From: a virus
Lineage: Duplodnaviria; Caudoviricetes
Reading direction: 5' to 3' (one strand)
IMG/VR virus record: IMGVR_UViG_3300027782_000116
Coordinates: 1 to 52,208 of that record
Length of the DNA stretch: 52,208 nt
The stretch's first letter is position 1. Each line of letters begins with the position of its first letter. Below the pieces are notes generated by a model. The model searched no databases and was not told where the DNA came from. It saw only the letters and a program-made list of their open reading frames with translations. Both the position numbers and the translations under genes were made by a program. Positions 4,229-31,090 of the stretch are shown here, piece after piece.

Positions 4229-4229
4229 T

Positions 4230-9983: not shown

Positions 9984-9984
9984 A

Positions 9985-10644: not shown

Positions 10645-10645
10645 A

Positions 10646-11880: not shown

Positions 11881-11933
11881 TATATTTTCTTTTATTATAA
11901 ATATCAAACCCTATGAAAGATATTTATGTAAAT

Positions 11934-14900
11934 ATGAATAATCAGAACATTTTAAAGTATTACGGAACCAAGTTGGATCTAAAATTGGACAGTTCCGAGT
12001 ATTATGACCATGAAATCGTTAAAAATGCTGGCGACTACAATGAAGATGTCCTAGATTTAACCAAAGAAATATCCTATACCGGCTTAACTATCAATACAAG
12101 TTTAAATAGTTTTATCTGTATTAAGACCACAGTTAAACTTATTGAGATCGATAATACCGCTAATGATCCAGATTACATCTACTCTGGATTAACGTTTACA
12201 TTAAACTATTCTAATTTTGTAGCTAATTTTGATACTACTGGTGTGACATATAATAATATTATATTAAACAATCATATATACACATATACAGGAATTACTG
12301 ACGAAGTGCATTATTTTAAAAAATTAACTTACAATTTATCACCTTCAATTGATAATAGAATAACTGGAAAAACAGAAACGGATATTATTGGTGAGTTCTC
12401 AAAAGTCATAATAGATTGTGTTGATAAGCTGGAAGATTCCGAATTATGTTGCCCGAAACAAGTTAAATTGGGTGCAAAACCTTGGGCATATGATTTTAAT
12501 ACAGGATCTGGACTAGACAATTGTGACGCACAAATTAAAAGAAGAACAAGCGCGGGGTGGACATTGGATTTTGTTTTAAATAGACAAGATCTTGATTGGG
12601 TTGATGGCGGGATATTTTATTATATTGGTGTTAGAGGCGATAACGATATAAAAAATTATGCGGATAATAATCTTTCTTTTGGTTTTACTCCTGATGGTAG
12701 GGTTAAATGGACGGCGATACATTATTCTGGAGTCTGCCAATCTGGGTATACTGAAACATATTATACTGCCAGTGGTGAAACGCCTACGATTTGTATGGAT
12801 GATCCAACAAAAGATTTTAATTTAACAATAGTTTTTGAAAGAAACAACTACTATGATGGTTGTGATATTGAAAATAGTGGTGGATGGAATGATTTAATAA
12901 GAGGTCCGCACGCTGTTGATGGGGAGCCGAATTTTGTGTCAAGTGTTACAGGGAGCTCGGTTGCTGATCAAGTAACCGTAGGTTATACCGTAACAAATGG
13001 AATGAAGGTGGTATTATCTGGTGAGACACCCACATATGAATACATTGAAGAATTAAATAAAAACTGGGCAGATGAGAGAAATAGAAGATTAGGCACATTA
13101 AAAATATACTTGAATGGTAGACCTATATATAAGTTAAAGAATTGGGAAGAGGTTATTCCATCTACTAGAGGTGTTCAACCATTTATTCAATCTTGGGGCG
13201 GTGGAACTGGGTTAATGGGTAATGTACATAATGGTGTTTGTTGTTTTAATGTTAAAAAAATTCAATATTATGAAGAACCATTGGATTTTGTGCATGTAAG
13301 ACATCACTACTTAACATCAATAAAACCAAATTTTAATATTAAAGAGTGTGGTGTTTTATGTGATAACGTTCCAAGTGGATTTGTTAAACCAACACCAACA
13401 CCTACAAATACACCGATTACAACAGCGACTGCTGTGCCAACTCCTACACCAACCAATACCGTAACACCTACACCAACTCAAACTGAGACACCAACACCTA
13501 CAAATACACCGATTACAACAGCGACTGCTGTGCCAACTCCTACACCAACCAATACCGTAACACCTACACCAACTCAAACTGAGACACCAACACCCACATC
13601 CACAGTAACCTATTACTATTATTATTTAAGGGATTGTAACCATACACATAATAAAATAGGCAGAAGTTTAACAAGTGGATTAGGTGGAATAACTTATAGT
13701 GTTGGTAATGGTGTATGTTATGAAATTGTGGGTATTGATCCAGGTCCAACATTTGATTATGATTTAGATACAATAACAATAGTTTCTGATTGTAATAATG
13801 CTGTGTGTTTAACCCCAACACCGACACCAACTAGTACTCCTATTGCTACGAGCACACCAACACCTACACCAACTATTACTTTATCACCATACAATTATAC
13901 TATCCAATGTAGGTCGATAGATGGTTCCAATAATAAATATGGTTGGTCAATTCAACAAGATGCGTGTCAAGGAAGTGAAAATAATATTATAGTTTATTCT
14001 AATTCATCAACATTTGTTGATGGTATGAATTTTTATTCAGACACCAACGGAGGTAATATTAATAATATTGTTGCTTGGACTGAATACTATTATTATTATC
14101 CTTTAGAAAATAAATCATTTAGATGGTTAGATGGTGGTACTATTGGTGAAATATTAATTTGTGTGTCTCCTACGGAAACACCGACACCAACTCCTACATC
14201 AACGGAGACAAGTACTCCATTATCAACTGAAACACCTACCCCGACACCAACTCCATTTATACCAGATAATGACTTTACATACGTAATCATACCAGGTAAT
14301 GACTTGGTTTATATGATTATTCCTAATAATGATTTTACATATAGATTAATACCAAGTAATGATTTAAATGGCACAATAATACCTAGCAGTGATTTAGAGT
14401 ATTTGGTTCTACCGTTAAACGATGTTAATTACACATTAATACCAAATACTGATTTAACATACACATTAATACCAAATAATGATTTAAATTATTCATTATT
14501 ACAACCAACACCTAACCCTACTTCAACACCATCACCTACATCAACAGAAACTCCTACACCCACACCTACATCAGATTTCGGTAGTTCAGGATTTCAATGG
14601 ATGACTATTAACTCAGTTACCGATACAACTGCATCGGGTATAGGCCAAAACAACATTACTCTTTCAGTTACGCAAAGTGGAGGTGGTATGGCAATAACTC
14701 AAGGAGTTTTCAACCCAACTGCATTCCCTGAACAGTACGGTGTACCATTTACAGGTAATCAAATTGCAAATTATAATAGTGGTACATTTACTGCAATATT
14801 TAGTCAACCGGTTACCGATGCGTTAGTTGCATTTGCAAGTATTGGACATGGAGGTTTATATGTACCAATTGAAGTGTCTGCACCGTTTACACCAATTTTT

Positions 14901-15578
14901 GGGGCCTCTGTATCTTATCAAAATCCGGTAAATGGTACTCAATATATGCAACTTACGGGAAATGAAGGATATTCAATTATTCGTATAGATGGTACAGTAA
15001 CTGGTGTAACTTTTAACTATACCGTACCTGAGGGTTACTGCAATGTTTGTTTTGGATTTGTAGATCAAAACAATCTAACAACCCCAACTCCCACACCAAC
15101 GGCAACAAGTACACAAACACCGACTCCAACTCCTACACCAACTGAAACACCAACCCCAACACCTACGGAGACACCTCAATTATACTTAAATTGTTATACA
15201 ATAAGACAATATTTGTCTGGTTATGATGGTGGTGGAAATACCGGTTTATATGTTTTGGAATCAGACTATCCTAATGTGAGCACAATTCCTAGTGGTGCAA
15301 TTGCCACAATTAACGGCACACCCGTTAGTGTGGTATATGTTTTCCAACAAAATTCCGCATATTTCCAAGGAGGTATTGGTTATATGATTGATTTCGGACA
15401 TAATGTGGGAATAATAAACGCAGGTACTTATATTGAGTTTTGTTGGTATAGTAATATTTCACCAACTCCTACGGTTACACCAACACCAAGTCCAACGCCG
15501 GATGCGTTTGGAATAATAACAGAAGATGGTATTTATATAATATCAGATGAAAATGGAAATACACTAATACCTGAATAA
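11934..15578 (+). CDS. Modular fibre/adhesin-like structural protein with Pro-Thr linkers
   Basis: Beta-rich N-terminal domain (LamG/lectin-like GTLKIYLNGRP), several (TP)n linkers separating small modules; likely start 11934 after TATTTATG. Confidence 0.7.
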   Translation: MNNQNILKYYGTKLDLKLDSSEYYDHEIVKNAGDYNEDVLDLTKEISYTGLTINTSLNSFICIKTTVKLIEIDNTANDPDYIYSGLTFTLNYSNFVANFDTTGVTYNNIILNNHIYTYTGITDEVHYFKKLTYNLSPSIDNRITGKTETDIIGEFSKVIIDCVDKLEDSELCCPKQVKLGAKPWAYDFNTGSGLDNCDAQIKRRTSAGWTLDFVLNRQDLDWVDGGIFYYIGVRGDNDIKNYADNNLSFGFTPDGRVKWTAIHYSGVCQSGYTETYYTASGETPTICMDDPTKDFNLTIVFERNNYYDGCDIENSGGWNDLIRGPHAVDGEPNFVSSVTGSSVADQVTVGYTVTNGMKVVLSGETPTYEYIEELNKNWADERNRRLGTLKIYLNGRPIYKLKNWEEVIPSTRGVQPFIQSWGGGTGLMGNVHNGVCCFNVKKIQYYEEPLDFVHVRHHYLTSIKPNFNIKECGVLCDNVPSGFVKPTPTPTNTPITTATAVPTPTPTNTVTPTPTQTETPTPTNTPITTATAVPTPTPTNTVTPTPTQTETPTPTSTVTYYYYYLRDCNHTHNKIGRSLTSGLGGITYSVGNGVCYEIVGIDPGPTFDYDLDTITIVSDCNNAVCLTPTPTPTSTPIATSTPTPTPTITLSPYNYTIQCRSIDGSNNKYGWSIQQDACQGSENNIIVYSNSSTFVDGMNFYSDTNGGNINNIVAWTEYYYYYPLENKSFRWLDGGTIGEILICVSPTETPTPTPTSTETSTPLSTETPTPTPTPFIPDNDFTYVIIPGNDLVYMIIPNNDFTYRLIPSNDLNGTIIPSSDLEYLVLPLNDVNYTLIPNTDLTYTLIPNNDLNYSLLQPTPNPTSTPSPTSTETPTPTPTSDFGSSGFQWMTINSVTDTTASGIGQNNITLSVTQSGGGMAITQGVFNPTAFPEQYGVPFTGNQIANYNSGTFTAIFSQPVTDALVAFASIGHGGLYVPIEVSAPFTPIFGASVSYQNPVNGTQYMQLTGNEGYSIIRIDGTVTGVTFNYTVPEGYCNVCFGFVDQNNLTTPTPTPTATSTQTPTPTPTPTETPTPTPTETPQLYLNCYTIRQYLSGYDGGGNTGLYVLESDYPNVSTIPSGAIATINGTPVSVVYVFQQNSAYFQGGIGYMIDFGHNVGIINAGTYIEFCWYSNISPTPTVTPTPSPTPDAFGIITEDGIYIISDENGNTLIPE
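13392..13583 (+). repeat. Perfect 96-bp tandem duplication (32 aa PT linker)
   Basis: 13392-13487 is identical to 13488-13583 (TPTPTNTPITTATAVPTPTPTNTVTPTPTQTE x2). Confidence 0.9.
14259..14501 (+). repeat. 30-bp/10-aa tandem repeat (IPxNDLxYxL) x8
   Basis: IPDNDFTYVI IPGNDLVYMI IPNNDFTYRL IPSNDLNGTI IPSSDLEYLV LPLNDVNYTL IPNTDLTYTL IPNNDLNYSL. Confidence 0.9.
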
Positions 15579-15604
15579 AAAAATTATAAAAAAAAGAAGT
15601 TAAA

Positions 15605-16300
15605 ATGGCACTAATAAAAGTTTCAGAATTAAGTAGTACGGGTTCCGTAAAAATTGATGATATATTAATGATATCCTCAACCAGTGGTAGTGGGTACACA
15701 TCAAATCGCATATCAATTGAAGATTTGGTATCAAGTCAACCATTTCTTGATTTAGGTTCTTCAGGAACTGCCGGTTCATCGGGAACATCGGGGTCTAATG
15801 GTTCTTCGGGTTCGTCAGGTTCAAGTGGATCTAATGGTTCTTCGGGTTCGTCAGGTAGTAATGGATTAAGTGGAACATCAGGTTCTAGTGGTACATCAGG
15901 AAGTTCAGGAACAAGCCCTACAAATGTCACATTAAAAACAACGGGGTCTTGGACAGTACCGGCAGGTGCATCAACACAAAGTTTTACAGTTGAGTCCAGT
16001 GCTTCATATACAATGTGGGTAAATGGTAATATTCCAAATGGTATTTTAACTTGGAACGCAACTGTAACAACATCAAATACAAATGTTCCGGCAGTTGGTT
16101 CTCAATATGGTTGGTATTACACACCGGGTAATGCATTAGTTTTAACTGCAATGCCTGACCAAATTATAGGAACAAATGGTAGTATTGCAAATACACCAAC
16201 ATCATACGCACCAAATACTTCAAATGTATTTTCGTTTGGTATAACAAATAATAGTGGGGCTTCACAAACAATTAATTACGGTTATATAAAATTATCATAA
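15605..16300 (+). CDS. Short collagen-like (Gly-Ser-Ser/Gly-Thr-Ser) fibre protein
   Basis: N-terminal KVSEL fibre-type motif, about 18 Gly-X-Y triplets of GSS/GTS/GSN, C-terminal beta-sandwich head. Confidence 0.75.
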   Translation: MALIKVSELSSTGSVKIDDILMISSTSGSGYTSNRISIEDLVSSQPFLDLGSSGTAGSSGTSGSNGSSGSSGSSGSNGSSGSSGSNGLSGTSGSSGTSGSSGTSPTNVTLKTTGSWTVPAGASTQSFTVESSASYTMWVNGNIPNGILTWNATVTTSNTNVPAVGSQYGWYYTPGNALVLTAMPDQIIGTNGSIANTPTSYAPNTSNVFSFGITNNSGASQTINYGYIKLS

Positions 16301-16358
16301 TAATAAAACAAAATAGACAGAAAATAAAGTATTTATAATAGACAAAAATTAACAAACC

Positions 16359-18458
16359 ATGGCAGTAGGAGCAAGAATAACAAGTAACAATCTAAGTGGT
16401 AAAACGGCAACAGTAACGTTTACCCCATATACAGGACTAACATCTGGAACCACGGAAAACCTTGGAACCAAAACAATCCCTTTCAATAACATCAACACAC
16501 ACCCGTATGGTGACTATAACATTTACTTTGCTGAGTATGATTACACATACACATTAAATGTACCTGAACCAGATGACTCTGTTCAATCGTTTGTTTATCA
16601 AAATAGAATAATTAATTCTGACAACTATGGTGCTGCGTTTTTGAATTTTAACGACTTTACCGCAGAAATTATTGACTTAGGTGTTGATACTAATGTATGG
16701 AATAATAGAGATATATACGTATTAAATAATTCAGGTTATATGCACTATTTCACAGGTGTTGACGATAGTGATGATAGATTAGTAATATTCACAGACGCAC
16801 AGCACGAAGAAATAGGAAGATATAGTGGTACAACTGGTAGTGCAAGTAGAGACGATTTAGACGGTAAATGGCTTACATTTGATGATGAAGATAATGGTGT
16901 GTTTACTTACTCAAATGGTGTGGAAGTATTCACATACACTTGGGACCCAGCGTTATATTATGTTGATATTGAGTGGGATTATGATGCAACCACGGCTGAT
17001 GGTACAATGATTCTTGAAAAATGGGAAATAGGTGATTGGACATACAATGGACCGGGTACATCACATCTAGTTAACCCAACTGACGGTACAACAACTTTAT
17101 TTAAAACTTGGACAGATGGAACATACGTTAGACATAAAATGACACCTTCATCTGATTTTATTGTTGTTTTAACTGAAGCTCAAGGTGTCTCAAACGCATA
17201 CTCAAATTTTGAAATATATGACACAAGTGGAACCATTTTAGAGACAGTTTCATTAACTGGTACCACATATAGTGATTATAGTGACCGATTTCACGGAACA
17301 AACAAATATACCATATTACTATGGGATGATGATAATGTAGATACCCCATATAAAATAATAAGTTATAATGGTAACACATCAAACTTAATTGAAACATCAC
17401 ACGCTAGAGGTACTGGATATACAGAAAACAATATAGATGGAGATTCTGGTTTATGGCCGGATAGTGAGGGAAATGATGGTGGTGTTGTAATAACTTTATA
17501 TGATTCGTATAATTGGAATAATTTTGGTAATGAGGTTACATACTGTGACATTATCTATATGTTCAATAATCAAACATCTTTTAGTACATATACATTTGCA
17601 AATAACGAACCAAAAACAATTAATACCTATGGTCAATTAAGTGACATTTACAGAACACCGTGTGTAAATGGTGATAATATTGTATCTATGTTAACCATTA
17701 TGTCGGGTAGTACTCGTATAGAAAGTATGAATGTTAGTGTATCTGGTGTTACTAATTTGAACTGGCATTCATTGGGTAATAGAACGGCTGTACAGATTTT
17801 TACAAATAGTAATAACAATGTAACTTACAAATTAATTAACGAATTAGGTGTTGTAATTGATTCATTAGATAACTATGAATTAATCTCAGCTTATAGTACA
17901 AGTATGTATTCTTTTGGTGAAACCGCCTATCTTACAATTATTGGGGTTTCTGCGGGCATTCTTGGTTATTATGTATATAGTGGTAGTACTGGATTTACTC
18001 AAACAGATTATTATAATAACTCATCTGATACAGGCTTTTATTCGTCACCTACGAGTAACTATGATGGTGCAATCGTTTTATATAATAATGATGAATTAGG
18101 TTTTAGAATATTAACACCAACCGGTATAACTAATGAATTTAATTTCCCTGAGTATAATCAATTTGACATTCGAGTTGGTGAGAGCAAATTTATGTTTGTT
18201 TACAATGAAACTTCAGGTGGTGTAACTAAAATAAGATTGTATGATTTTTCTGGAACATTGTTAAATAATGAAACAACAAGTTGGACTAATGGTTGGAGTG
18301 ATACGTATGGTGTTAAAGACAGATTTGTTGTAATTAACTATAATGGGGATGATACGGTTGAAGTTTATTTAGTTAGTGAAAACACTATAACATCAGTAAC
18401 AACTCAAGATTATAGTAGTGAAGAATCCACGAACGATTGGTTTTATGAAAATGACTAA
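16359..18458 (+). CDS. Beta-rich structural/receptor-binding-like protein (possible beta-propeller)
   Basis: 699 aa rich in Thr/Asn/Asp/Tyr, own TATTTATA motif, recurring YD.SG.LL.T-type blades. Confidence 0.6.
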   Translation: MAVGARITSNNLSGKTATVTFTPYTGLTSGTTENLGTKTIPFNNINTHPYGDYNIYFAEYDYTYTLNVPEPDDSVQSFVYQNRIINSDNYGAAFLNFNDFTAEIIDLGVDTNVWNNRDIYVLNNSGYMHYFTGVDDSDDRLVIFTDAQHEEIGRYSGTTGSASRDDLDGKWLTFDDEDNGVFTYSNGVEVFTYTWDPALYYVDIEWDYDATTADGTMILEKWEIGDWTYNGPGTSHLVNPTDGTTTLFKTWTDGTYVRHKMTPSSDFIVVLTEAQGVSNAYSNFEIYDTSGTILETVSLTGTTYSDYSDRFHGTNKYTILLWDDDNVDTPYKIISYNGNTSNLIETSHARGTGYTENNIDGDSGLWPDSEGNDGGVVITLYDSYNWNNFGNEVTYCDIIYMFNNQTSFSTYTFANNEPKTINTYGQLSDIYRTPCVNGDNIVSMLTIMSGSTRIESMNVSVSGVTNLNWHSLGNRTAVQIFTNSNNNVTYKLINELGVVIDSLDNYELISAYSTSMYSFGETAYLTIIGVSAGILGYYVYSGSTGFTQTDYYNNSSDTGFYSSPTSNYDGAIVLYNNDELGFRILTPTGITNEFNFPEYNQFDIRVGESKFMFVYNETSGGVTKIRLYDFSGTLLNNETTSWTNGWSDTYGVKDRFVVINYNGDDTVEVYLVSENTITSVTTQDYSSEESTNDWFYEND

Positions 18459-18478
18459 AAATTAAAAAAAAATAGATT

Positions 18479-18721
18479 ATGAAAATATTAGATATTGATG
18501 TTAAAATCATCAAAAACAAACAAAAAATTAAAAGTTTTCAAAAAACTTTTAACACTAATGAACCATTAACGGTTGAACACATTAAAGGTGTTATTAAAAA
18601 TGAAATGGGATTTCCATTTGAAATAGTAAAAGAAGAATTTTACTGTAAGTCAAATGAATTAAAAAATGAAGATAACGCACCATTTAAATCAGGTAACGAA
18701 TTTATTTTAACAATTAAGTAA
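18479..18721 (+). CDS. Small protein with predicted ubiquitin-like beta-grasp fold
   Basis: TVEHIKGVIKNEMGFP aligns with ubiquitin TIENVKAKIQDKEGIP; overall beta-beta-alpha-beta-beta-beta pattern; no C-terminal GG. Confidence 0.55.
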   Translation: MKILDIDVKIIKNKQKIKSFQKTFNTNEPLTVEHIKGVIKNEMGFPFEIVKEEFYCKSNELKNEDNAPFKSGNEFILTIK

Positions 18722-19089
18722 TGGAATTTTTTATAAGACAAGGCGCATCTGACCCAATATTAAAGATGAGATTAGTGGACGACGGCAAAAATGATAAGTC
18801 GTCGTTCAATGATTTATTGGAAAATGCCAACATAATATTCGAAATGTTTGAAATAAAAACCGGAGATCCTATTATTTTAAACGCGCAATGTAATATAACC
18901 ACTAGAAATAAGAGATATAATCAAACTACAGATGAATATTATATAACTTACAGATTTACAGAGGATAAAACCGCTATTCCCGGAAAATACGAAGGTATCA
19001 TCACGGTACATTTTTTAGACACCAATCTATTACCAACAACAAAGTTAATATTACCTATTAGAGAAAAACTATATATTAACATTATTTAA
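18721..19089 (+). CDS. BppU N-terminal-like (Ig-fold) baseplate/fibre adaptor
   Basis: F.IRQG...PIL...L and ITYRFTEDKTAIPGKYEGIITVHF...LILP pattern. Confidence 0.55.
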   Translation: MEFFIRQGASDPILKMRLVDDGKNDKSSFNDLLENANIIFEMFEIKTGDPIILNAQCNITTRNKRYNQTTDEYYITYRFTEDKTAIPGKYEGIITVHFLDTNLLPTTKLILPIREKLYINII

Positions 19090-19185
19090 GATTTTTTCTT
19101 TTTTTAGAATTTTTTATGTATTTTTACAAAGTTAAGGCAAATTACGATTTTCGTAAGCTAATGTGTCACTTTTAAAATACATAAA

Positions 19186-22083
19186 ATGAAAGAGGTTATC
19201 TCTCAGGAAGTTATTGAAAACTTTCTAAATGGCTCTGATCCAGAAGAGTTCATAGTTGGCATTGAGTATGATTACAGATCCAACAAAATTTACAAAATTA
19301 TTCAAGACCCAGTTAAAGGTAAGTATATTGTTGAAGATACCTTTGTTCCGTTTTTATGGGTTGGCGATTTAAGTGAGTTCAATTTTTACGGCGGGAGCAA
19401 GGCAACCCAAAAGAAAAAAATGGGCGAATTCGGTATTTTAAGTACCAAATTAGAAACACATGGTAATGAGCGACTAGAAGGTGGCTTAAGTTATTTAGTT
19501 AAAAGCATAAAGGGTTATCATGAATTAATTAATTTTTTCAAAATGGGTGGTGTTAATCCATGGGATGAAAAATTTAAATCACAATTTCAAATATTAACAC
19601 CTGTTGAACAATATCTTATACAAAAGAAAAAAAGATTATTTAAAGGTATTGAAGAATATTCAGAAGTTCATCGTTTTGTATTTGACATTGAGACCACGGG
19701 GCTTACTCCAGAAGATTGTAATATAATCTTGATTGGAATTAAGGACAATCGTGGTTTAAATAAAACAATTAGTGCATTTGGTGAAGATGGTGAAAAAAAA
19801 TGTATTGAGGCATTTTTTGCGGCTATAAAAGAATTAAAACCAACAATCATAAGTGGGTATAACTCAGCAGCGTTTGACTTACCATTTATTATGCGTAGAG
19901 CTGAGATACTAGGTATTAATATTAAAGAAATGACTCAAATATTCACTAACGATGGTATTAGAACAAAAGAGGGTTCGCTTAAATTAGCTAGTGAGGTTGA
20001 ACCATATACACAATATGTTTTATGGGGTTTTAGTATTATAGACATTGCACATGCAGTTAGAAGAGCACAAGCAATTAATTCCGAAATTAAAAGTTGGGGT
20101 TTGAAATACATAACAACATATTTGGAGAAAGAAAAAACAAATCGTGTTTACGTTGATGGTGCATTTATTTCAAAAATATATTTAGAAAATGAAAGTTATT
20201 ATGTTAACCCTAAGACTGGTAAGTATAAAAAAATTGGTGAGCCTGGGACAGAGGGTTTAACTGAAAAATATCCGGGGAAATTTGAAATATGGCCGGGTAG
20301 AAAAATTGTTGAGCAATATCTTGATGATGACTTGTACGAAACTATGGTTGTTGATGATAGTTTTAGCCAATCTACTTTTTTACTTTCAAAAGTAATTCCA
20401 ACAACATACGAAAGAGTGGCAACCATGGGCACAGCAACATTATGGAAAATTATAATGTTAGCGTGGTCTTATGAAAATAATTTAGCAATACCGGCAAAAG
20501 ATGAAAAGAGAGCGATTACTGGAGGGTTATCTCGTTTATTGAATGTTGGGTATTCAAAGAACATTGTTAAGTTTGACTATTCGTCGCTTTATCCATCAAT
20601 TCAATTGGTGTACGATGTATTCCCTGAATGTGATGTTATGGGTGTACAAAAATCTATGTTAAAATATTTCCGTAACATTCGTATTAAGTATAAACATCTT
20701 GCTGGTGAATTAAAAGATAAAGACCCAGTAATGGCCGAGATGTATGATCGTAAACAATTACCAATTAAGATTTTTATCAATGCTTATTTTGGTTCATTAT
20801 CTGCACCACAAGTATTTCCGTGGGGTGATATGAATATGGGTGAAACTATTACATGTGTTGGACGTCAATGTTTACGTATGATGATTATGTTCTTTCAAAA
20901 CAAAAATTATAAACCGCTCGTAATGGATACGGATGGTGTGAACTTTGAGACTCCTGAAAATATTAACGACACTGTTTATATTGGTAAAGGATTAAATGAA
21001 TTAGTGATTGAAGGTAAAGAGTATCGTGGTATTGAAGCTGATACTGCGGAATTTAATGATATTTTTATGAGAGGTGAAATGGGATTAGATATTGATTATA
21101 TTGCACCTGCGTGTATTAATGTTTCTCGTAAAAATTATATAATTAAATTAATTAAGAAAGGTAAAGAAAAAATTAAACTTACAGGTAACACCATCAAATC
21201 TAAAAAATTACAACAATATGTTGTTGATTTCTTAGATGAGGGCCTTAAACTTTTATTAAATGGTGATGGGCATGATTTTTTAAATCTTTATTATGATACT
21301 GTTGAAAAAATATACAATAAAGAAATACCATTAGCAAAAATAGCAAACAAAGCGCGTGTTAAACAAAGTGTTTCTGATTATAAAAAATACATTTTAAGAA
21401 CTACTAAAGCAGGCGCATTAATGTCAAGACAAGCGCATATGGAACTTGTTGTTCAAAATGATTATCACGCTAGTTTAGGTGAAACAATTTATTACATTAA
21501 CAACGGTACTAAAAAAGGTGATGGGGATGTTACTAAAATAACCAAACCAACTAAAAAGTTTCAGGAAGAATTTATTGCTAAACACGGTTACCCTATACCT
21601 AATGATTACGTACAAATAAATTGTTACATGATTGATGAGAAAGAATTAAATAATAATCCAAATATGGTTGGGGATTATAATGTGGCTCGTTATTTAACAA
21701 ATTTTAATAAAAGGTTAGAACCATTACTTGTTGTTTTTAATCCAGAAATTAGAGAAGACATTTTAATTGAAGATCCGGCAGATAGAGTTTATTTTACAAA
21801 GAAACAATGTGAACTAACATCTGGATACCCATTAAAAGACGGCGGTCAAGATAAAATTGAAGAGGTTATGACGCTTGCGGATAGTGAGGTATTGTTTTGG
21901 AATCGTGTACAAAGAGATCCTTTCTTCATGTATGTTGAAGATAGTTTAAATAAAGTAGATCAATTTTGGATTGAGCATAATAGAAAAGTTGTGTCTATGC
22001 AAATTAATGGCACGGTTAGCAACGAAGATGAAATAATTGAGACTAATGGTAATGACTATGCGATGCACGCTGTAGAGAGTTAA
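19186..22083 (+). CDS. Family B DNA polymerase (gp43-like)
   Basis: ExoI FDIETTG, ExoII GYNSAAFD, motif A DYSSLYPSI, motif B KIFINAYFG, motif C DTDG. Confidence 0.95.
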   Translation: MKEVISQEVIENFLNGSDPEEFIVGIEYDYRSNKIYKIIQDPVKGKYIVEDTFVPFLWVGDLSEFNFYGGSKATQKKKMGEFGILSTKLETHGNERLEGGLSYLVKSIKGYHELINFFKMGGVNPWDEKFKSQFQILTPVEQYLIQKKKRLFKGIEEYSEVHRFVFDIETTGLTPEDCNIILIGIKDNRGLNKTISAFGEDGEKKCIEAFFAAIKELKPTIISGYNSAAFDLPFIMRRAEILGINIKEMTQIFTNDGIRTKEGSLKLASEVEPYTQYVLWGFSIIDIAHAVRRAQAINSEIKSWGLKYITTYLEKEKTNRVYVDGAFISKIYLENESYYVNPKTGKYKKIGEPGTEGLTEKYPGKFEIWPGRKIVEQYLDDDLYETMVVDDSFSQSTFLLSKVIPTTYERVATMGTATLWKIIMLAWSYENNLAIPAKDEKRAITGGLSRLLNVGYSKNIVKFDYSSLYPSIQLVYDVFPECDVMGVQKSMLKYFRNIRIKYKHLAGELKDKDPVMAEMYDRKQLPIKIFINAYFGSLSAPQVFPWGDMNMGETITCVGRQCLRMMIMFFQNKNYKPLVMDTDGVNFETPENINDTVYIGKGLNELVIEGKEYRGIEADTAEFNDIFMRGEMGLDIDYIAPACINVSRKNYIIKLIKKGKEKIKLTGNTIKSKKLQQYVVDFLDEGLKLLLNGDGHDFLNLYYDTVEKIYNKEIPLAKIANKARVKQSVSDYKKYILRTTKAGALMSRQAHMELVVQNDYHASLGETIYYINNGTKKGDGDVTKITKPTKKFQEEFIAKHGYPIPNDYVQINCYMIDEKELNNNPNMVGDYNVARYLTNFNKRLEPLLVVFNPEIREDILIEDPADRVYFTKKQCELTSGYPLKDGGQDKIEEVMTLADSEVLFWNRVQRDPFFMYVEDSLNKVDQFWIEHNRKVVSMQINGTVSNEDEIIETNGNDYAMHAVES

Positions 22084-22712
22084 TATACAATTGGGAAAAG
22101 AATGGAACTCATAAATTCTTTAGCTCTCTCTTCACCGAGTTTGGCTTTTAAGACATTATATGTTCTTTCATTCTTTTGCTGTTGTAAACAATATCTATTT
22201 TGCCCTTCAGCTATTTCATTTACTCTTTGTGGAATTGATTCGCATTGACCTAACATTTCAATATAGTCTTCAAAACTTCTTATTGCAATATTTGCAATAA
22301 TTTCAAATTCTTCATCACTAGGTACAATTGCAATTGCATCTTTTGAAAAAATCACCTTAGCCCAATCTGGTAAATTATACGGTGTCTTAAATTCGTAAGG
22401 CGAAACATATGTCTCCTCGTTAGCCACTGGGCTCCAATCCATAAACGCCGCCAAACATTTCTTGCTAGTAGTGATAATGTCAAAACCAAATATTGGGTCT
22501 GGACATGTAGCATTTGGGAAACACGTAAAATGAAGTACTTCCAAGTTAGCATCGCTGTATCTCTCGATATGGGCAATTCTAAAATGTTCAGCGATAAATC
22601 TACGATTATCCCAACCAAAATCTTCAGTTGGTATTTTAACTCCTTCACACTCTTTGTATATTATTTGTTCTAATTTATTAGCGACTAAATTCAGCGTTTC
22701 CTTGTAATTCAT
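22080..22712 (-). CDS. Ferredoxin-dependent bilin reductase, PcyA/PcyX-like
   Basis: FRIAHIE, LEVLHFTCFP, PIFGFD, DWSP, LPDWAKVIFS, QNRYCLQQQKNERT..VL, FM..ILFP; H48/E50/H61/D78 match PcyA H74/E76/H88/D105 spacing. Confidence 0.9.
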   Translation of the reverse strand: MNYKETLNLVANKLEQIIYKECEGVKIPTEDFGWDNRRFIAEHFRIAHIERYSDANLEVLHFTCFPNATCPDPIFGFDIITTSKKCLAAFMDWSPVANEETYVSPYEFKTPYNLPDWAKVIFSKDAIAIVPSDEEFEIIANIAIRSFEDYIEMLGQCESIPQRVNEIAEGQNRYCLQQQKNERTYNVLKAKLGEERAKEFMSSILFPIVY

Positions 22713-23202
22713 CTAATATATTGATTATAAATTGAAACCCTTTATTTACTTCATCTGACCATTCGTCTTTTTGTACTGCACGAATAGACCCAACACATTC
22801 CATCATATTTTCAAAATCATACATTTTACCAGATCCTGGTACTTTTGTCTTCATCATTTGACCACCATATGCTAGTGCTAAATAATTTAAATAAATGTGT
22901 GGTAAAATATCTTCATTACTTAATGATTGAAGATAGACACCATATTCTTTAGTAGATTCTAAACTTACTGTCTTAGTAATAAGTCCGGTTTCTAGTTCTC
23001 TAATATCTTCAAAAATTAATTTTTCCCTAGGTAAGTTTGGGTGAGGTAATTTATGCTGCTCAATGATAGTAAAAATAACAGATTGTTGTCTAAGGTAATT
23101 TAAGTATTCTTCATTACTTAATAATCCTCTAAACATTTTTTGATTGAACTCCATCTTCTCAGCTTTGCTGTGAAGTTCTGATGTTGATTCTTTTAAATTC
23201 AT
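22678..23202 (-). CDS. Heme oxygenase (HemO/Ho1-like)
   Basis: LKESTSELHSKAE (proximal His11), YLNYL, R...IFEDI, HIYLNYLALAYGGQ, EVNKGF. Confidence 0.9.
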   Translation of the reverse strand: MNLKESTSELHSKAEKMEFNQKMFRGLLSNEEYLNYLRQQSVIFTIIEQHKLPHPNLPREKLIFEDIRELETGLITKTVSLESTKEYGVYLQSLSNEDILPHIYLNYLALAYGGQMMKTKVPGSGKMYDFENMMECVGSIRAVQKDEWSDEVNKGFQFIINILDELQGNAEFSR

Positions 23203-23206
23203 AAAA

Positions 23207-23214
23207 CAAATATA
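23207..23214 (-). promoter_or_regulatory. Bacteroidota-type -7 promoter element TAnnTTTG (TATATTTG) for the bilin cassette
   Basis: Exact consensus 4 nt upstream of the heme oxygenase ATG; no clear -33 TTTG. Confidence 0.45.
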
Positions 23215-23215
23215 C

Positions 23216-24331: not shown

Positions 24332-24360
24332 TTGGTCCTTGTTTTATAATAAATATAAAA

Positions 24361-26112: not shown

Positions 26113-26160
26113 AGTAAAATATAAATAAAAACAAACACTTTATAAACTATTTATTATCAT

Positions 26161-26673
26161 ATGGACAATAAATTACCTATCACTAGACTCAGCAAATTCT
26201 TCTCACAAGAAGACTTTGATTTACAAGTAGACATCGGTCAGGAGTATCTTCACGGCGATTTAAACATGAAACTTGTACTTTATCGAGTAGATAAACAAAA
26301 AACCGATAAAGACGATGTTTATGGTGAGGTTGGATTAGATGAGATCAAGTTTTTCCCTCCGGTAGAATTTAATGCGTTGGTTAAAATTGAAGGGCCAAAA
26401 AACAGTACATATAAGGGCGGAATGCTTAGGTATAACGAGCCGGGAAATTTAGTTTTATCTGTTTATATTAAACATTTGAACGATTTGAAGATAGATATAA
26501 AATATGGTGATTATATTGGATATGTAGAATCTGAAGATAAAATTAGATATTACACAGTAACAAATGACGGTAAGGTTACATCAGATAATAAACACAACTT
26601 ATTTGGCTATAAACCTTATTATAGATCAATAACTTGTGCAATTGCTCAAGAGCAAGAATTTAGAGGAGTATAA
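26161..26673 (+). CDS. Head-closure/neck protein (gp14-like)
   Basis: DDVYGE..., L..L.IDIKYGDYI pattern; position before the tail terminator; TATTTATT upstream. Confidence 0.6.
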   Translation: MDNKLPITRLSKFFSQEDFDLQVDIGQEYLHGDLNMKLVLYRVDKQKTDKDDVYGEVGLDEIKFFPPVEFNALVKIEGPKNSTYKGGMLRYNEPGNLVLSVYIKHLNDLKIDIKYGDYIGYVESEDKIRYYTVTNDGKVTSDNKHNLFGYKPYYRSITCAIAQEQEFRGV

Positions 26674-26674
26674 C

Positions 26675-27910
26675 ATGGGAATGCCAAAAAGAAAGACCGA
26701 CATACAGGTCTACAGAGGTAAAGAACTTACTGAAAGAAGACAGGAGTTGTTAGATAGAATAACAAAATCTGATACTTTTTTACCAGACACTATTTTACAT
26801 GACGATTTAGACTCTGGGATGTTAGACTATGTAAAAAAAGAATTTAAGGTAGTTAGTGACGGGGCTAAAATACCAGTTATACCCAAAATTTTAACAATTC
26901 AAAGATGGGCACAACTTACTAATACTTGGGAGTTTTCAGATAATGACGGTAATATGAAGGTTCCTTTTGTTGCAGTTATTAGAAAACCTGACGTTCAACC
27001 AGGAACTAACCCTTCGGTAATTAGAACCGTTCCAGATAGACATCAGTTCCATTACGCCACCGTTCCTACTTGGAATGGCACTCAAATGGGTGCAGATGTT
27101 TATAAAATACCACAACCAATCCCTGTTGATATTACATATGACGTCACTATTGTCTGCACAAAAATTAGAGAATTGAATAAATTCAATAAGATTGTGATGG
27201 AAAGGTTTGCATCTAGACAGGACTATACAACCGTAAAAGGGCATTATATACCGATAGTATTGGACAGAATTGAGGATAATTCACCAATCGATCAAATAGA
27301 TGGCCGTAGATTTTACCTTCAAACATACACGTTTACTATGCTTGGGTTCTTAATTGATCAAGATGAGTTTGAGGTTAAACCAGCAATAAGTCGTTTTTTC
27401 CTTTTGAATGAGTTTGCTAAAAATACTAATTACCAAAAGAAATATATAAATAAAACTATATTATTAACTGTTGTTAATTTTAAGGCCGATGGGTTACAAA
27501 CAGCATTTAGTGTTGGTGAGAGTATTGGCATTTTATTTAGTGTTGCTATTAATGGTCTTTTACAAGAAAGAGATATTGACTATTTCCATATAGGTGGAAC
27601 ATCAAAGATAACTTTTGCGGTTGCACCAGTTGAGGGTAGTACTATAACGATAACTTACTATAAGGGTAGAAATAGTGTTTTCATAGACAACTATGGTAAA
27701 CCAATTCAAGTTAACACAGAATATTTTGTATATGATGGTTCAACATTGATTTTTCAAGTAGCTGGTTCGATTAGTAGCGTTGTTACTTTAGACATAAATG
27801 GTCTTGTTGAAGAAGAAGGTTTTGGTTTTGATATTGTTGCGTATAATCAAATAGGTTTGAATTACACCCCAGTAGTTGGTTCCAAGATTGGTGTAACATA
27901 TTTATTCTAA
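26675..27910 (+). CDS. Tail terminator/sheath stabiliser (gp15-like) with two C-terminal beta-sandwich repeats
   Basis: PQPIPVDITYDVTI...ELNK and R.YLQTYTFTMLGFL; start moved to ATG 26675 after the upstream stop. Confidence 0.65.
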   Translation: MGMPKRKTDIQVYRGKELTERRQELLDRITKSDTFLPDTILHDDLDSGMLDYVKKEFKVVSDGAKIPVIPKILTIQRWAQLTNTWEFSDNDGNMKVPFVAVIRKPDVQPGTNPSVIRTVPDRHQFHYATVPTWNGTQMGADVYKIPQPIPVDITYDVTIVCTKIRELNKFNKIVMERFASRQDYTTVKGHYIPIVLDRIEDNSPIDQIDGRRFYLQTYTFTMLGFLIDQDEFEVKPAISRFFLLNEFAKNTNYQKKYINKTILLTVVNFKADGLQTAFSVGESIGILFSVAINGLLQERDIDYFHIGGTSKITFAVAPVEGSTITITYYKGRNSVFIDNYGKPIQVNTEYFVYDGSTLIFQVAGSISSVVTLDINGLVEEEGFGFDIVAYNQIGLNYTPVVGSKIGVTYLF

Positions 27911-28065
27911 TCTTCGTCATATAGATCTGTTTTTTTGGGTTTACAAACCTCTTCTATAAATTTTTCTAAAATTTTGTAAATTTTTAAACCATTCTTTTCA
28001 CAGTGCTTTTTTAACATCTCGTGATGTTTTTCGCTGATTTTTACGTTTTTGCTTTTGTTTTCCAT
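27907..28065 (-). CDS. Small ribbon-helix-helix-like regulator (52 aa, not in ORF track)
   Basis: MENKSKNVKISEKHHEMLKKHCEKNGLKIYKILEKFIEEVCKPKKTDLYDED; alternating beta strand KNVKIS followed by helix-G-helix. Confidence 0.65.
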   Translation of the reverse strand: MENKSKNVKISEKHHEMLKKHCEKNGLKIYKILEKFIEEVCKPKKTDLYDED

Positions 28066-28192
28066 ATTAAAAGATAAATAAAGATAAAAAAAGATAAAAT
28101 ACTATCTTTTAAGAGAAAAGTACGGAAATCTTTGCTAAAAACAAAGATATTTATTAGTTAAGAATAAAAATATTATAACCAAAAATTAATCA

Positions 28193-31090
28193 ATGGCAAA
28201 TTCAAACAGAGTATTCGTCTCACCAGGTGTGTATACATCAGAGAAGGATCTAACATTCGTGGCGCAAAGCGTCGGAGTTACAACATTGGGATTAGTTGGA
28301 GAAACCTTAAAAGGACCAGCTTTTGAACCAATCTTGATTTCAAATTTCGACGAATATAAAACATATTTTGGCGGCACGTTAGCTGCAAAAGATCCTTCTG
28401 GGAATCCAAAATATGAGCTACCTTACGTAGCAAAATCTTATTTACAAGAATCAAATCAATTATTTGTAACTCGTATCTTAGGATTAACTGGTTACTTACC
28501 AGGAAAATCTTACGGTATTAAAACATTAGGTGGTTTCGCACCAACAGGTACTGGCGCAACAATGTCAGATAAATGGGATAATTCAGTAATAACTGGATCA
28601 ACATCTGCTGACCTTGCTGTTACTTCATATTCTACTTTTACAGGAAGCACGCTTTATGCTGAGTTATCTGATAAGACAGCATTTGATGGGTCTACTGTAA
28701 CTGATTATATCTATTCAAATTTTAGTGGAGTTACAGGTGGTACAGATGGTTTATGGTTCGTAATTGGACAAATACCGGATTCAGAACTACCTATTGACGC
28801 AGCTAAAGAGGTTGTATCTGCAATGACGGGCGCATTATATGCCGACTCATCATATAACAAAAATTGGTATAATGTTTATAACAACGGAACTAATAAAGTT
28901 AACTCGTATGTTTTCACTTGGAATTTGGGTGACCGTAAATTTTCTGTAAAGAAAATAGAACACAATGCTACATTGGTTAATGACGGAACTGTGGTTGCTA
29001 CTTTAAGATCTCGTGGTGAATATGCTGCAAATGTATTAAATTATAGAGTAACTGGTTCTACACACGTACAAGTAACTGGCGCAAATATTGCAACAAACCC
29101 TCTTAGTGATTTCACATTAACTGTTACTGGTTATACTGGTAATGTTACTGACACAAAAACGTTTGCATGTTCTTTAGATATGTCATCAACAAAATACATC
29201 ACTAAAGTAATTGGTGTTGAAGTTTTTGATAAAGAAAAAGCAGAATATCCAATATATGTTCACGAAGCATATCCAAACCTAGTTAAAAATTTATTTGAAC
29301 AAGGTTTGATTAGAGGTTTGAGTACTGTTGAATATGTTAAAACTGAAGGAAATAACTTTAAAGGTGAATGGGAAACCCCAGGAACTTCAACTGTTGTTTC
29401 AGAGGTTAGAGGTGGTAAGGTTTCTGATCTTTTCCAAATATTAACGGTTTCTGACGGTAACGCAGCAAACTACAATGTAAAAGTAACAATTCAAAATTTA
29501 GATTTAGACACTGGTGAATTTGATATATTGGTACGTGATTATTTCGATAGTGATGATAATCAAGTAGTACTTGAAAAGTTCACAAGATGTACAATGAACC
29601 CAGATTTACCTGGATATGTTGCAAGAAAAGTTGGTACTTCTGATGGTGAATATGAATTAAGATCTAAACATATTATGTTAGTTCTTTCTGATGAAGCGCC
29701 TACAGACGCTATCCCAGCTGGTTTTAAAGGAATTACAACATACGGCCCATCTGGATCTACTGTTGGAGATATTACATATAAAACTAAATATTTTGATGCT
29801 GGGGAGACATTGTATTATGACGCATCAGGTATAGCACAAACAACAAATGGTGATAAAGTTAAGAAAGTAAGTTTAGGTTTCTCAACACAAGATCATTTCA
29901 CTTATGATGATGATTTATTAAAATACAAAGGTAAAGACGCGTCTAAGGCAACTAAAGGTTTCCACTTATCAGTTAATGCGGCAACAATTACTGGAACTTC
30001 TGGTGAAGCGTTGTTTACAACAACCGCATATGATTTAGAAGGTGTTGACAAAGATAAATTAGCAAAGGCGACATACCGTAAATTTACAATGCCAGTATTT
30101 GGTGGATTTGATGGTTGGGATATCTACAGAAGAACTAGAACATATGGTGATGGTTTCATCTTTGGTAAAACAACATATTCTGCTGGAAGTGATACTAATG
30201 GTGGTGTATTCAGTCACACAGGTGGTAACTCAGATTATTATGCTTACTTACAAGGAATTAACACATATGCTAACCCTGAAGCAATTGATATAAATCTATT
30301 TGCAACTCCAGGTATTAACTGGAACGATCATAGCTCATTAGTAAATCAAGCAATTGATATTATTGAGAATGATAGAGCAGATTCATTATATATCATTAAC
30401 TCACCAAACTTTACTGGCACAACCGGTACTGCTGAAGTGGTTTCTGCTATTCAAGATTTAGCATTGGATTCTAACTACTCAGCAACATATTGGCCTTGGA
30501 TTCAAGTAAGAGACACAGATAACGCAACACAACTTTATATCCCACCAACAGGTGAAGTATTAAAGAACATTGCCTTAACTGACAATGTAGCTTATCCTTG
30601 GTTCGCAGTCGCTGGTTACTCTAGAGGTATTGTTACTTCAATCAAAGCATCTAAAAAATTAACTTTAGATGATAGAGATGAATTATACAAGAATAGAATT
30701 AATCCAATTGCAACATTCTCTGATACAGGCACTATTATCTGGGGTAACAAAACGTTACAAGTTAGAGAATCAGCACTCGATAGAATCAACGTAAGAAGAT
30801 TATTATTGAGAGCAAGAAAGTTAATCTCTGCAGTAGCGGTAAGATTATTGTTTGAACAAAATGATGATCAGGTTAGACAAGAGTTCTTAAGATTGGTAAA
30901 TCCTATCTTAGAATCAATCAAGAAAGAAAGAGGTCTTTATGACTTCCGTGTAACAGTATCAAACGATCCTGAGGATATTGATGCTAACACATTAAGAGGT
31001 AAAATCTACGTTAAACCAACTAGAGCGTTGGAATTCATTGATGTAGAGTTTGTTATCACTCCAACTGGAGCTTCTTTTGAGAATGTTTAA
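28193..31090 (+). CDS. Contractile tail sheath protein (gp18-like)
   Basis: SPGVYTSEKDLT N-terminus; YPWFAVAGYSRG, RDELYKNRINPI, WGNKTLQ, DRINVRRLL, FEQND. Confidence 0.95.
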   Translation: MANSNRVFVSPGVYTSEKDLTFVAQSVGVTTLGLVGETLKGPAFEPILISNFDEYKTYFGGTLAAKDPSGNPKYELPYVAKSYLQESNQLFVTRILGLTGYLPGKSYGIKTLGGFAPTGTGATMSDKWDNSVITGSTSADLAVTSYSTFTGSTLYAELSDKTAFDGSTVTDYIYSNFSGVTGGTDGLWFVIGQIPDSELPIDAAKEVVSAMTGALYADSSYNKNWYNVYNNGTNKVNSYVFTWNLGDRKFSVKKIEHNATLVNDGTVVATLRSRGEYAANVLNYRVTGSTHVQVTGANIATNPLSDFTLTVTGYTGNVTDTKTFACSLDMSSTKYITKVIGVEVFDKEKAEYPIYVHEAYPNLVKNLFEQGLIRGLSTVEYVKTEGNNFKGEWETPGTSTVVSEVRGGKVSDLFQILTVSDGNAANYNVKVTIQNLDLDTGEFDILVRDYFDSDDNQVVLEKFTRCTMNPDLPGYVARKVGTSDGEYELRSKHIMLVLSDEAPTDAIPAGFKGITTYGPSGSTVGDITYKTKYFDAGETLYYDASGIAQTTNGDKVKKVSLGFSTQDHFTYDDDLLKYKGKDASKATKGFHLSVNAATITGTSGEALFTTTAYDLEGVDKDKLAKATYRKFTMPVFGGFDGWDIYRRTRTYGDGFIFGKTTYSAGSDTNGGVFSHTGGNSDYYAYLQGINTYANPEAIDINLFATPGINWNDHSSLVNQAIDIIENDRADSLYIINSPNFTGTTGTAEVVSAIQDLALDSNYSATYWPWIQVRDTDNATQLYIPPTGEVLKNIALTDNVAYPWFAVAGYSRGIVTSIKASKKLTLDDRDELYKNRINPIATFSDTGTIIWGNKTLQVRESALDRINVRRLLLRARKLISAVAVRLLFEQNDDQVRQEFLRLVNPILESIKKERGLYDFRVTVSNDPEDIDANTLRGKIYVKPTRALEFIDVEFVITPTGASFENV

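Follow-up and report, generated by a model that had tools for sequence, protein, structure and literature searches.

A four-residue [S/T]-G-x-T motif enriched in tail proteins of uncultured jumbo phages and its possible role as an O-glycosylation sequon

Whether the tail proteins of an uncultured virus carry a short sequence signal for O-glycosylation is the question raised by IMGVR_UViG_3300027782_000116, a 52,208-base fragment of approximately 31% G+C that is the whole of its record (the window hereafter). A first-pass annotation had counted the motif [S/T]-G-x-T by eye, found it concentrated in surface structural proteins, and read it, together with three glycosyltransferases (GTs) encoded in the window, as a dedicated O-glycosylation sequon. 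Herein, we compared the motif with shuffled sequences in the window, its relatives, and other phages. The enrichment was confirmed, whereas its reading as a dedicated sequon is plausible and is adopted here tentatively. Complete relatives include G003 (335,630 bp; rated 100% complete), whose region of 131-179 kb is syntenic with the window, and the more distant G007 (321,283 bp, with terminal repeats), whose sheath is 42-44% identical. The synteny with G003 and the size of the complete relatives indicate that the window, judged by its gene content and sequence, comes from a jumbo myovirus.

Enrichment and anatomy of the motif

The motif was tested with 5000 composition-preserving shuffles per open reading frame (ORF), and the test was repeated by shuffling within 50-aa blocks. 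The 12 structural ORFs of the window, when pooled, contained 39 motifs versus 11.6 expected (Poisson p=2e-10), and the 31 other ORFs contained 5 versus 3.2 expected. The counts of the 16359-18458 protein (11 motifs versus 1.6 expected) and of the tail sheath (9 versus 1.5) were reached in 0 of 5000 shuffles, and the fibre ORF had 9 motifs versus 3.0 expected (p=0.002; p=0.0002 by block shuffles). The 1919-aa protein (p=0.044), the 101-aa protein (p=0.05), and the DNA polymerase PolB (p=0.044) were marginal. The block-wise results agreed with those of the global shuffles.

All counts made by eye were reproduced: 9 in the fibre, 11 in the 16359 protein, 9 in the sheath, 4 in the 39955-45714 protein, and 2 in the 46984-47289 protein. 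The same was true of the low counts, with 2 in PolB, 0 in the gp32-like single-stranded DNA-binding protein (SSB) and the 662-aa 32892-34880 protein, and only TGKT in the RecA-like and DnaB-like proteins. The central placement in the sheath also held, as 7 motifs lie at residues 120-315, and the first 119 and the last 220 residues are free of them. For the fibre, the 9 motifs stood, with 8 of them at residues 56-369, but not the start at 11934, which is Met8 of an ORF beginning with the ATG at 11913. The label of baseplate hub for the 39955-45714 protein was dropped; this protein has no family match, and the PHROG baseplate-hub match is the 32007-32750 protein, which has 0 motifs. Linkers of Pro-Thr (PT) and GSS/GTS collagen-like repeats were present in the window as described. 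The possibility that no enrichment would be left after shuffling was rejected, and the signal is strong, lineage-wide, and pattern-specific.

The specificity was assessed by ranking all 8000 patterns of the form a-b-x-c. In the three main carriers with PT linkers masked, TGxT (17 versus 2.6 expected) and SGxT (12 versus 1.8) were the top two patterns by orders of magnitude. When all window proteins of at least 300 aa were scanned with low-complexity stretches masked, TGxT ranked first and SGxT second.

The anatomy of the motif was then derived from 122 sites pooled over eleven enriched proteins of the window and G003. Position 0 was S in 57 sites versus 5.9 expected and T in 65 versus 7.6, and the alternatives were not enriched there (D 6 versus 5.1, N 5 versus 6.1, with A and V also at expectation). 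At position 1, G occurred 122 times versus 13.5, with N at 10 versus 14.1 and D at 12 versus 11.8; at position 3, T occurred 122 times versus 13.5, with S at 16 versus 10.6 and V at 9 versus 8.0. Position 2 was unconstrained save for P, which was never seen. Shifted and reversed versions of the motif were near expectation, except for the overlapping [ST]GT pattern. Among 128 sites, the residue at -1 was hydrophobic in 78, compared with a background of 33%, and the commonest residues were T, N, S, G, V, and I at -2 and G, S, F, L, T, and I at +4. Ser in the motif was encoded by both TCT and AGT, and the Gly and Thr codons were mixed, indicating that the signal lies in the protein and not in the DNA. 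A DNA-level origin of the motif was ruled out on these grounds.

Carriers, turnover, and distribution across genomes

The motif is concentrated in few ORFs of G003: 10 of 402 were enriched at p<0.01 and together held 98 motifs, and the other 392 contained 105 versus 104.2 expected. The enriched proteins include the sheath, the homologue of the N-terminal 480 aa of the fibre (143370-144929, 54% identical; 8 motifs versus 0.84 expected), the orthologue of the 39955-45714 protein (41% identity; 10 versus 1.5, p=4e-6), and a baseplate-distal or fibre-like cluster just past the point corresponding to the window end, in which proteins of 627, 692, and 1895 aa carry 17, 18, and 18 motifs, respectively. 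The inner baseplate proteins, the tube, the portal, and all enzymes were at chance, and the giant collagen-like proteins were at or below expectation. In G007, 6 of 380 ORFs were enriched, and the loads of orthologues differed (for example, 17 versus 3 motifs).

BLAST among the enriched G003 proteins returned nothing but two matches of approximately 25-32 residues to one segment of the 1895-aa protein, and hhalign gave a probability of 0.1 for the sheath family against the family of the 16359 protein. A homologous domain shared by the carriers was found by neither method. Apart from the families listed in Table 1, a Pfam search of the carriers, SBBP and other propeller repeats included, gave nothing at E<=1, and a search of the ESM Atlas with the 627-aa G003 carrier gave only unnamed clusters at no more than 0.86.

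The AlphaFold2 model of the 16359 protein (pLDDT 88.2, pTM 0.81) has 52 strands and a single 5-residue helix. The Foldseek matches listed were all propeller-containing chains, mostly tandem WD40 or YWTD, with a probability of 1.00 and E down to 2e-11. The TM scores were only 0.15-0.25, indicating that the two propellers are arranged differently from those of the matches. The protein is predicted from this model to be a tandem beta-propeller with four-stranded blades. In the DSSP string, read by eye, 8 of its 11 motifs lie in a loop that a strand immediately precedes; by a coarser automatic criterion, the figure was 5 of 11 versus a background of 30%. As modelled, this strand-to-loop placement is ambiguous, since it would fit a structural turn and also the site at which the TibC/Aah family of O-glycosyltransferases modifies its substrates. 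The N-terminal 69 residues (window 16359-16565), modelled with low confidence and containing three invariant motifs, share 46% identity with the N-terminus of a 1106-aa G003 protein (238248-241568) that is otherwise unrelated. By sequence, they look like a shared attachment module.

The sheath was modelled poorly (mean pLDDT 42.7, with only residues 100-340 at approximately 66-80). Its motif-bearing insertion presumably faces outward, by comparison with T4 gp18. Many uncultured IMG/VR relatives have sheaths 59-87% identical to that of the window. The closest named phage is Microcystis phage Mel-JY01, with a 31% identical sheath from which the insertion is mostly missing and in which three alignable motif sites have other residues.

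The 112 full-length homologues of the 16359 protein (46-100% identity) carry 6-12 motifs each versus 1.5 expected, and the 73 sheath homologues of at least 600 aa, from 80 loci, carry 1-13 versus approximately 1.35. In 45 distinct sheaths, 416 motifs fell in 44 alignment columns, of which 1 had an occupancy of at least 80%, and 74% of them lay in residues 100-340, a quarter of the length. Sheath pairs at 60-70% identity had a Jaccard overlap of motif columns of 0.16-0.23, a turnover that is somewhat inflated by misalignment in the gappy motif region. In the wider sheath family, represented by 150 sequences (33-78% identity), 19 were enriched at p<1e-3 and 27 had no motif. Of the sheaths followed up to obtain a motif-free relative together with its genome, P0140 had no IMG/VR relative, and P0141 led only to lineages with moderate enrichment.

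Nine whole genomes were run through one pipeline, namely, G003, G007, LR756501, LR756504, Mel-JY01, T2, ZCKP1, P-TIM68, and S-RIM12, with PT, collagen-like, and low-complexity stretches masked in the blind scans of 8000 patterns. ORFs at p<1e-5 were found in G003 (6), G007 (4), and LR756501 (10), and none in the other six genomes. SGxT and TGxT ranked 2 and 1 in the window, 1 and 2 in G003, 3 and 1 in G007, and 1 and 2 in LR756501, compared with 2663 and 2337 in Mel-JY01, 1010 and 1084 in LR756504 (636 kb), 1275 and 437 in T2, and 3524 and 847 in ZCKP1, four genomes in which the motif is at chance. LR756501 is an unrelated 735-kb phage whose carriers differ, having no BLAST match in G003 or the window except for collagen-like repeats; 2 of the 9 carriers scanned match tail families, and the remainder have no functional annotation. 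Its 1183-aa protein (LR756501.1, 391944-395495, minus strand) has 58 motifs, of which 56 are identical TGPT units forming a GPT collagen-like array, and is to be discounted. In the T4-like cyanophages P-TIM68 and S-RIM12 (NC_028955.1 and KX349317.1; proteins of at least 300 aa), TGxT ranked 64th and 20th, respectively. The top pattern of P-TIM68 was GIxT (86 versus 19.5 expected), presumably from a repeat domain.

Of the three GTs reported in the window, the one at 2379-3164 passes a Pfam cut-off, whereas 7001-8230 is assigned by PHROG only and 3167-4228 by ESM Atlas features only (matches of 0.98-0.99 to clusters with PF00534 in 42-78% of their members); neither of the latter two reaches the Pfam gathering scores for GT-B (GT1/GT4-like) families. 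Sequence and profile searches of the PDB returned no relatives of the window GTs, and an NCBIfam scan of the minus-strand cluster gave weak matches only. All three GTs are kept in G001, G003, G007, G008, and G009, and all three are missing from Mel-JY01. Homologues of 7001-8230 are 72% identical in G001, 68% in G003, 53% in G007, 52% in G008, 51% in G009, and 35% in LR756501, and there are none in Mel-JY01, LR756504, P-TIM68, S-RIM12, or T2 (at E<=1e-3 for P-TIM68 and S-RIM12). Among 50,697 phage records, 7001-8230 was the only one of the three to be matched, at 35% in LR756501 and LR756503, and at 22-28% in phi92/phAPEC8-like phages and a few others; the GT2 enzyme and 3167-4228 had no homologue in these records, the motif-rich LR756501 included. 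Six fragmentary records (G002, G004, G005, G006, G010, and G011) yielded no match to the GTs or to heptosyltransferases of the TibC type, which is uninformative as they are 36-65% complete.

Strong enrichment correlated with the presence of 7001-8230 and not with that of the GT2 enzyme or 3167-4228. Of the genomes with a 7001-8230 homologue of at least 33% identity, 3 of 3 had ORFs at p<1e-5, compared with 0 of 5 lacking a homologue and 0 of 1 whose only homologue is at 27-31%. For LR756501 and LR756504, GT status was established before the motif scan, and the homologue-bearing LR756501 proved motif-rich and the homologue-less LR756504 motif-poor. Ten of the 402 G003 genes are present in G007 and LR756501 and absent from Mel-JY01 and LR756504: the 7001-8230 orthologue, two sugar epimerases, a calcineurin-like phosphoesterase, a Dam-like methylase, two collagen-like proteins, two LamG (lectin-fold) proteins, and a 2-oxoglutarate (2OG)-Fe(II) oxygenase. 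The orthologue is the sole one of approximately 20 GTs in G003 to share the phyletic pattern of the motif. The association between motif and GT holds for strong enrichment in this set of genomes, but it is tentative, coming from about two independent positive lineages and being inseparable from a co-varying collagen-fibre module. As the only window GT that tracks strong enrichment, 7001-8230 is the candidate motif-modifying enzyme.

Weighing the readings

We tentatively favour the reading of [S/T]-G-x-T as a short linear motif that is kept under selection on outward-facing tail parts (the sheath insertion, the fibre N-terminal domain, the double beta-propeller, and peripheral baseplate and fibre proteins) and is read in trans as an O-glycosylation sequon. 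We infer that a phage-encoded enzyme acting in trans in the infected cytoplasm would recognise and modify it. This enzyme would most probably be an O-glycosyltransferase, with the GT-B-like 7001-8230 product as the best candidate, and the sugars would be placed on Ser/Thr at position 0 or on Thr at +3 of the tail proteins, before or during assembly. The sharp residue requirements, the carriers without homology, the restriction to the outer tail, the turnover at constant density, and the tracking of the GT in two prospective checks argue for a site read in trans. A broader version, which we regard as rather unlikely, is that several unrelated groups of huge aquatic phages share sequon-directed O-glycosylation, in which the GT-B family of 7001-8230, not characterised before, would read hydrophobic-[S/T]-G-x-T at the starts of hairpin loops and coat the outer tail, the sequons drifting at a kept density as in viral glycan shields.

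A number of observations weigh against a sequon read by this enzyme. ZCKP1 has a 27-31% homologue of 7001-8230, which adjoins replication genes, and is motif-poor. G001 keeps all three GTs at 72-75% identity, and yet its sheath has only 3 motifs versus 1.3 expected. Independent lineages are few, with two positive and five without the homologue, and nine other G003 genes co-vary with the motif, so that the GT might serve that collagen-fibre module. The gene itself is outside the tail module, in the company of PhoH, dUTPase, and nucleotidase genes on the other strand, and the G003 major capsid protein is hardly enriched (3 versus 0.6 expected). SGxT ranks 2 of 8000 in P-TIM68 (50 versus 23.6) and S-RIM12 (47 versus 21.8), an approximately 2-fold excess in phages without the candidate GT, indicating that part of the signal is independent of the GT, weaker, and more widespread; the 2.6-fold excess of G007 is not far above the 2.1-fold of these cyanophages. 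In the 16359 family, sites 13, 25, 29, 156, and 300 are nearly invariant in the 112 homologues, with the x position free, and in the model three sites of the first propeller lie between strands three and four of a blade when strands are grouped by eye. In some sheath columns, G is replaced by D or N, as is seen in turns. It is also possible, by analogy, that the window GTs modify the host surface or DNA instead, as cyanophage GTs are interpreted in the available text of PMC12801897.

The main rival is a purely structural beta-hairpin word, an Asp-box-like strand-to-loop design in expanded beta-rich tail, fibre, and propeller modules, which would have spread by shared folds or ancient module exchange and would be read by no enzyme; we consider this nearly as likely as the sequon. 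The Asp-box, S-x-D-x-G-x-T-W, is a sharp hairpin motif of sialidases and other folds that contains G-x-T and that no enzyme reads, and according to work by Copley et al. in 2001 it reportedly recurs in unrelated folds. A structural word is favoured by the loop position immediately behind a strand and the hydrophobic residue at -1, by the five nearly invariant propeller sites, by the equivalent blade loops of three first-propeller sites, by the swaps of G in the sheath, by the excess of SGxT in the two cyanophages, and by an enrichment that looks graded across genomes, from 1.0-fold to 5-fold, and not all-or-none. However, turn statistics lead one to expect that a plain turn tolerates D, N, or G at the turn and V or I in the strand, and D/N at position 0, N/D at position 1, and V/I/S at position 3 are not enriched. 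The motif is not an Asp-box, as neither D at -2 nor W at +4 is in excess and the S/T directly before G is specific to the phage motif. The homologous positions of the Mel-JY01 sheath lack it, with that whole genome at chance, its positions change quickly at a steady density, the carriers show no detectable homology among themselves, and the trait is present or absent by whole genome.

The motif might also be read in trans by something other than 7001-8230, and perhaps not for glycosylation, through another modification or binding by a co-varying gene product or a host enzyme. We regard this as improbable. The ten G003 genes with the same pattern do include a 2OG-Fe(II) oxygenase, a phosphoesterase, two LamG proteins, and two epimerases, and a factor that is more widespread, or supplied by the host, would fit the weak SGxT signal of the GT-less cyanophages, but no kinase or other Ser/Thr-modifying enzyme was seen among the ten; besides the GT and the sugar enzymes, the co-varying genes look like a collagen-fibre module, and nothing positive speaks for a specific alternative. 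It is very unlikely that the TibC/Aah-like O-heptosyltransferases of the relatives modify the loop-start Ser/Thr. G003 encodes two strong homologues, the 376-aa one with the catalytic residue Asp110, Lys230, Trp305, and the four iron-finger Cys kept, and the known substrates of the family are glycosylated at the loop start of a strand-loop-strand motif (PMC3835316, available text). Against this, Mel-JY01 and LR756504 have homologues as well and are at chance for the motif, the 52-kb window fragment has no such gene, Thr226 and Arg286 are replaced in the 376-aa protein, and the family is described in the same text as reading structure and not a consensus. That the enrichment is an artefact of composition, low-complexity repeats, or post hoc protein choice is hardly credible. 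Some high counts do come from repeats, as in the LR756501 protein with the TGPT array, and three window proteins had been picked by eye, but global and 50-aa local shuffles reject it, masked blind scans still rank the motif first and second, 392 of 402 G003 ORFs are at expectation, and each carrier has 6-21 distinct tetrapeptides with no obvious periodic spacing.

Precedents, relatives, and neighbouring genes

The sequon reading has precedents, which also differ from it. In mycobacteriophages, work by Freeman et al. in 2023 reportedly showed by experiment glycans on the C-terminal S/T-rich extensions of capsid and tail-tube subunits. As there, phage-encoded GTs are proposed here to attach O-glycans to structural proteins of the phage itself inside the host cell. 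Unlike there, the candidate site here is a four-residue motif at hairpin loops of the sheath, fibre, and baseplate that is known from sequence alone, the capsid is hardly involved, and the GTs come from unrelated families. BclA-type collagen-like glycoproteins of Bacillus form surface filaments in which Thr is O-glycosylated in GPT triplets, two residues after Gly, and arrays of the LR756501 kind are glycosylated in this way in BclA. Collagen-like proteins are likewise abundant in these phages, as is illustrated by the TGPT array in LR756501. Unlike in BclA, however, the motif lies outside collagen triplets, the collagen-like protein of the window is not enriched, and the collagen-like giants of G003 show no excess.

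Bacterial autotransporter heptosyltransferases (BAHTs) such as TibC and Aah, which act on TibA and AIDA-I, O-glycosylate Ser/Thr at the loop start of a strand-loop-strand motif in the cytoplasm, reading structure with no sequence consensus (PMC3835316, available text). The loop-start Ser/Thr context of the phage motif matches, and relatives of the window phage encode strong homologues. Those of G003 align with TibC at E=9.5e-51 (residues 27-384 of 406) and 2.8e-52, with lipopolysaccharide heptosyltransferases at only E=0.06. In TibC, the catalytic base is Asp110, sugar binding involves Lys230, Trp305, Thr226, and Arg286, and Cys residues form an iron finger (PMC4358343, available text). In the 376-aa G003 homologue, the sole alignment inspected, Asp110, Lys230, and Trp305 are identical, and Cys 339, 342, 358, and 370 are kept. 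Thr226 is replaced by Gly and Arg286 by Ile, indicating that the donor sugar may differ, and Pro300 is replaced by Ser, as in AAH. Unlike in the motif reading, BAHTs are described as working without a sequence consensus, and the motif does not follow the presence of their homologues across phages. The homologues in the motif-poor Mel-JY01 (40% identity) and LR756504 (32%) indicate that this family does not account for the enrichment. The TibC-like enzymes are a useful precedent and a separate lead, and not an explanation of the motif. In G007 and Mel-JY01, the TibC-like domain is part of ORFs longer than 1200 aa, and the Mel-JY01 one is annotated as "methyltransferase FkbM".

By Pfam, G003 has approximately 20 GT-domain proteins in addition to sugar-nucleotide enzymes, a gene set that recalls the fibril glycosylation of giant viruses. 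The genome has two glycosylation islands, at approximately 226-305 kb (L098-L102) and 52-96 kb (L089-L091), which hold four giant collagen-like proteins, LamG proteins, and two GT7-LamG fusions. The GTs of the islands are GT2, GT4-FkbM, GT11, GT25, GT92-like, and Anp1-like enzymes and a PF11397 GlcNAc-transferase, and the sugar and tailoring enzymes are UDP-galactopyranose mutase, RmlC, epimerases, UDP-glucose dehydrogenase, a carbamoyltransferase, and adenosine phosphosulfate (APS) kinase. An Asp/Asn hydroxylase, 2OG oxygenases, and radical SAM enzymes are also present.

No published SGxT/TGxT sequon and no glycosylated jumbo-phage tail was found in the literature searched, largely by titles and abstracts, and a review of O-glycosylation in viruses (PMC11139210) does not mention phages. 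As far as this literature goes, the all-or-little enrichment at the genome level, the large glycosylation gene set of the lineage, and TibC-like protein glycosyltransferases in phages are apparently new. If the sequon reading is true, [S/T]-G-x-T would be the first O-glycosylation sequon to be defined in a bacteriophage, found from sequence alone. Glycosylated tail surfaces of uncultured huge phages could then be predicted from sequence, there would be a candidate enzyme family and concrete acceptor peptides to work with, and roles of a glycan coat (protection from proteases or grazers, passage through host mucilage, and receptor mimicry) could be tested. If the motif is structural, it would be a new Asp-box-like hairpin signature that marks tail modules without functional annotation in Pfam or PHROG.

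Table 1. Carriers, collagen-like protein, and glycosyltransferases of the window, and TibC/Aah-like genes of other phages (aa, amino acids)
Feature	Position	Strand	Evidence and [ST]GxT content
GT2-family glycosyltransferase, 261 aa	2379..3164	-	Pfam Glycos_transf_2 (PF00535) 29.2 bits, above cut-off 23.3
Probable GT-B-like glycosyltransferase, 353 aa	3167..4228	-	Pfam Glycos_transf_1 E=0.045, 13.7 bits, below cut-off 26.4
Glycosyltransferase, GT-B-like, 409 aa	7001..8230	-	PHROG 7162 2e-41; Pfam Glyco_trans_1_4 21.6 bits, below cut-off 27
Fibre-like protein, 1221 aa	11913..15578	+	9 motifs, 8 in N-terminal domain (residues 56-372); PT linkers after it
Collagen-like protein, 231 aa, GSS/GTS triplets	15605..16300	+	Pfam Collagen 8e-9; 1 motif versus 1.45 expected, no enrichment
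All-beta protein, 699 aa, predicted tandem double beta-propeller	16359..18458	+	11 motifs versus 1.6 expected
Tail sheath, 965 aa	28193..31090	+	Pfam Phage_sheath_1/1C, PHROG 23 1e-63; 9 motifs, 7 in lineage-specific insertion, residues 120-315 (nt 28550-29137)
Giant tail or baseplate protein, 1919 aa	39955..45714	+	No family match; 4 motifs, marginal (p=0.044)
101-aa protein, C-terminal PT tail	46984..47289	+	2 motifs (p=0.05); weak likeness to tail-fibre proximal subunit, phrog_15824 6e-6
TibC/Aah-like genes, G003	L101:6337-7464 and L101:11982-14102		286-294 kb, outside the window-syntenic part
TibC/Aah-like gene, G007	317982-319043		
TibC/Aah-like gene, Mel-JY01	7366-8427		
TibC/Aah-like gene, LR756501	580168-581199		
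TibC/Aah-like gene, LR756504	457178-458227		

The window holds a T4-type tail module with the sheath, the tube (31370-31858), baseplate proteins, and giant unannotated proteins. Its replication genes encode PolB, the gp32-like SSB, a RecA/UvsX-like protein, a DnaB-like helicase, and a 5'-3' exonuclease, and a minus-strand cluster encodes PhoH, a dUTPase, a nucleotidase-like protein, a sigma-like factor, and 2-3 GTs. Genes for a haem oxygenase and a ferredoxin-dependent bilin reductase lie at 22080-23202 (minus strand), between PolB and an adaptor-like gene, and by their predicted functions suggest a cyanobacterial host. Homologues of these two genes were found nowhere in G003, including the region syntenic with the window. 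We know of no cultured member of this phage group.

The fibre protein matched only a PHROG of no known function. Residues approximately 782-863 of the fibre (window 14256-14501) form a tandem array of a 10-residue IPxNDLxYxL-type unit flanked by TPTPTP linkers, which probably makes up a regular shaft segment of beta structure. The fibre gene, on the plus strand, and the minus-strand cluster (3-11907) are divergent and 5 bases apart, indicating that both promoters are inside coding sequence or that the fibre starts at Met8. A divergent sigma-70-like protein (1681-2379, minus strand), with region 2 below the Pfam cut-off, adjoins the pair of GT genes and is 82% identical in G003, which makes it the best-kept product of the minus-strand cluster apart from PhoH.

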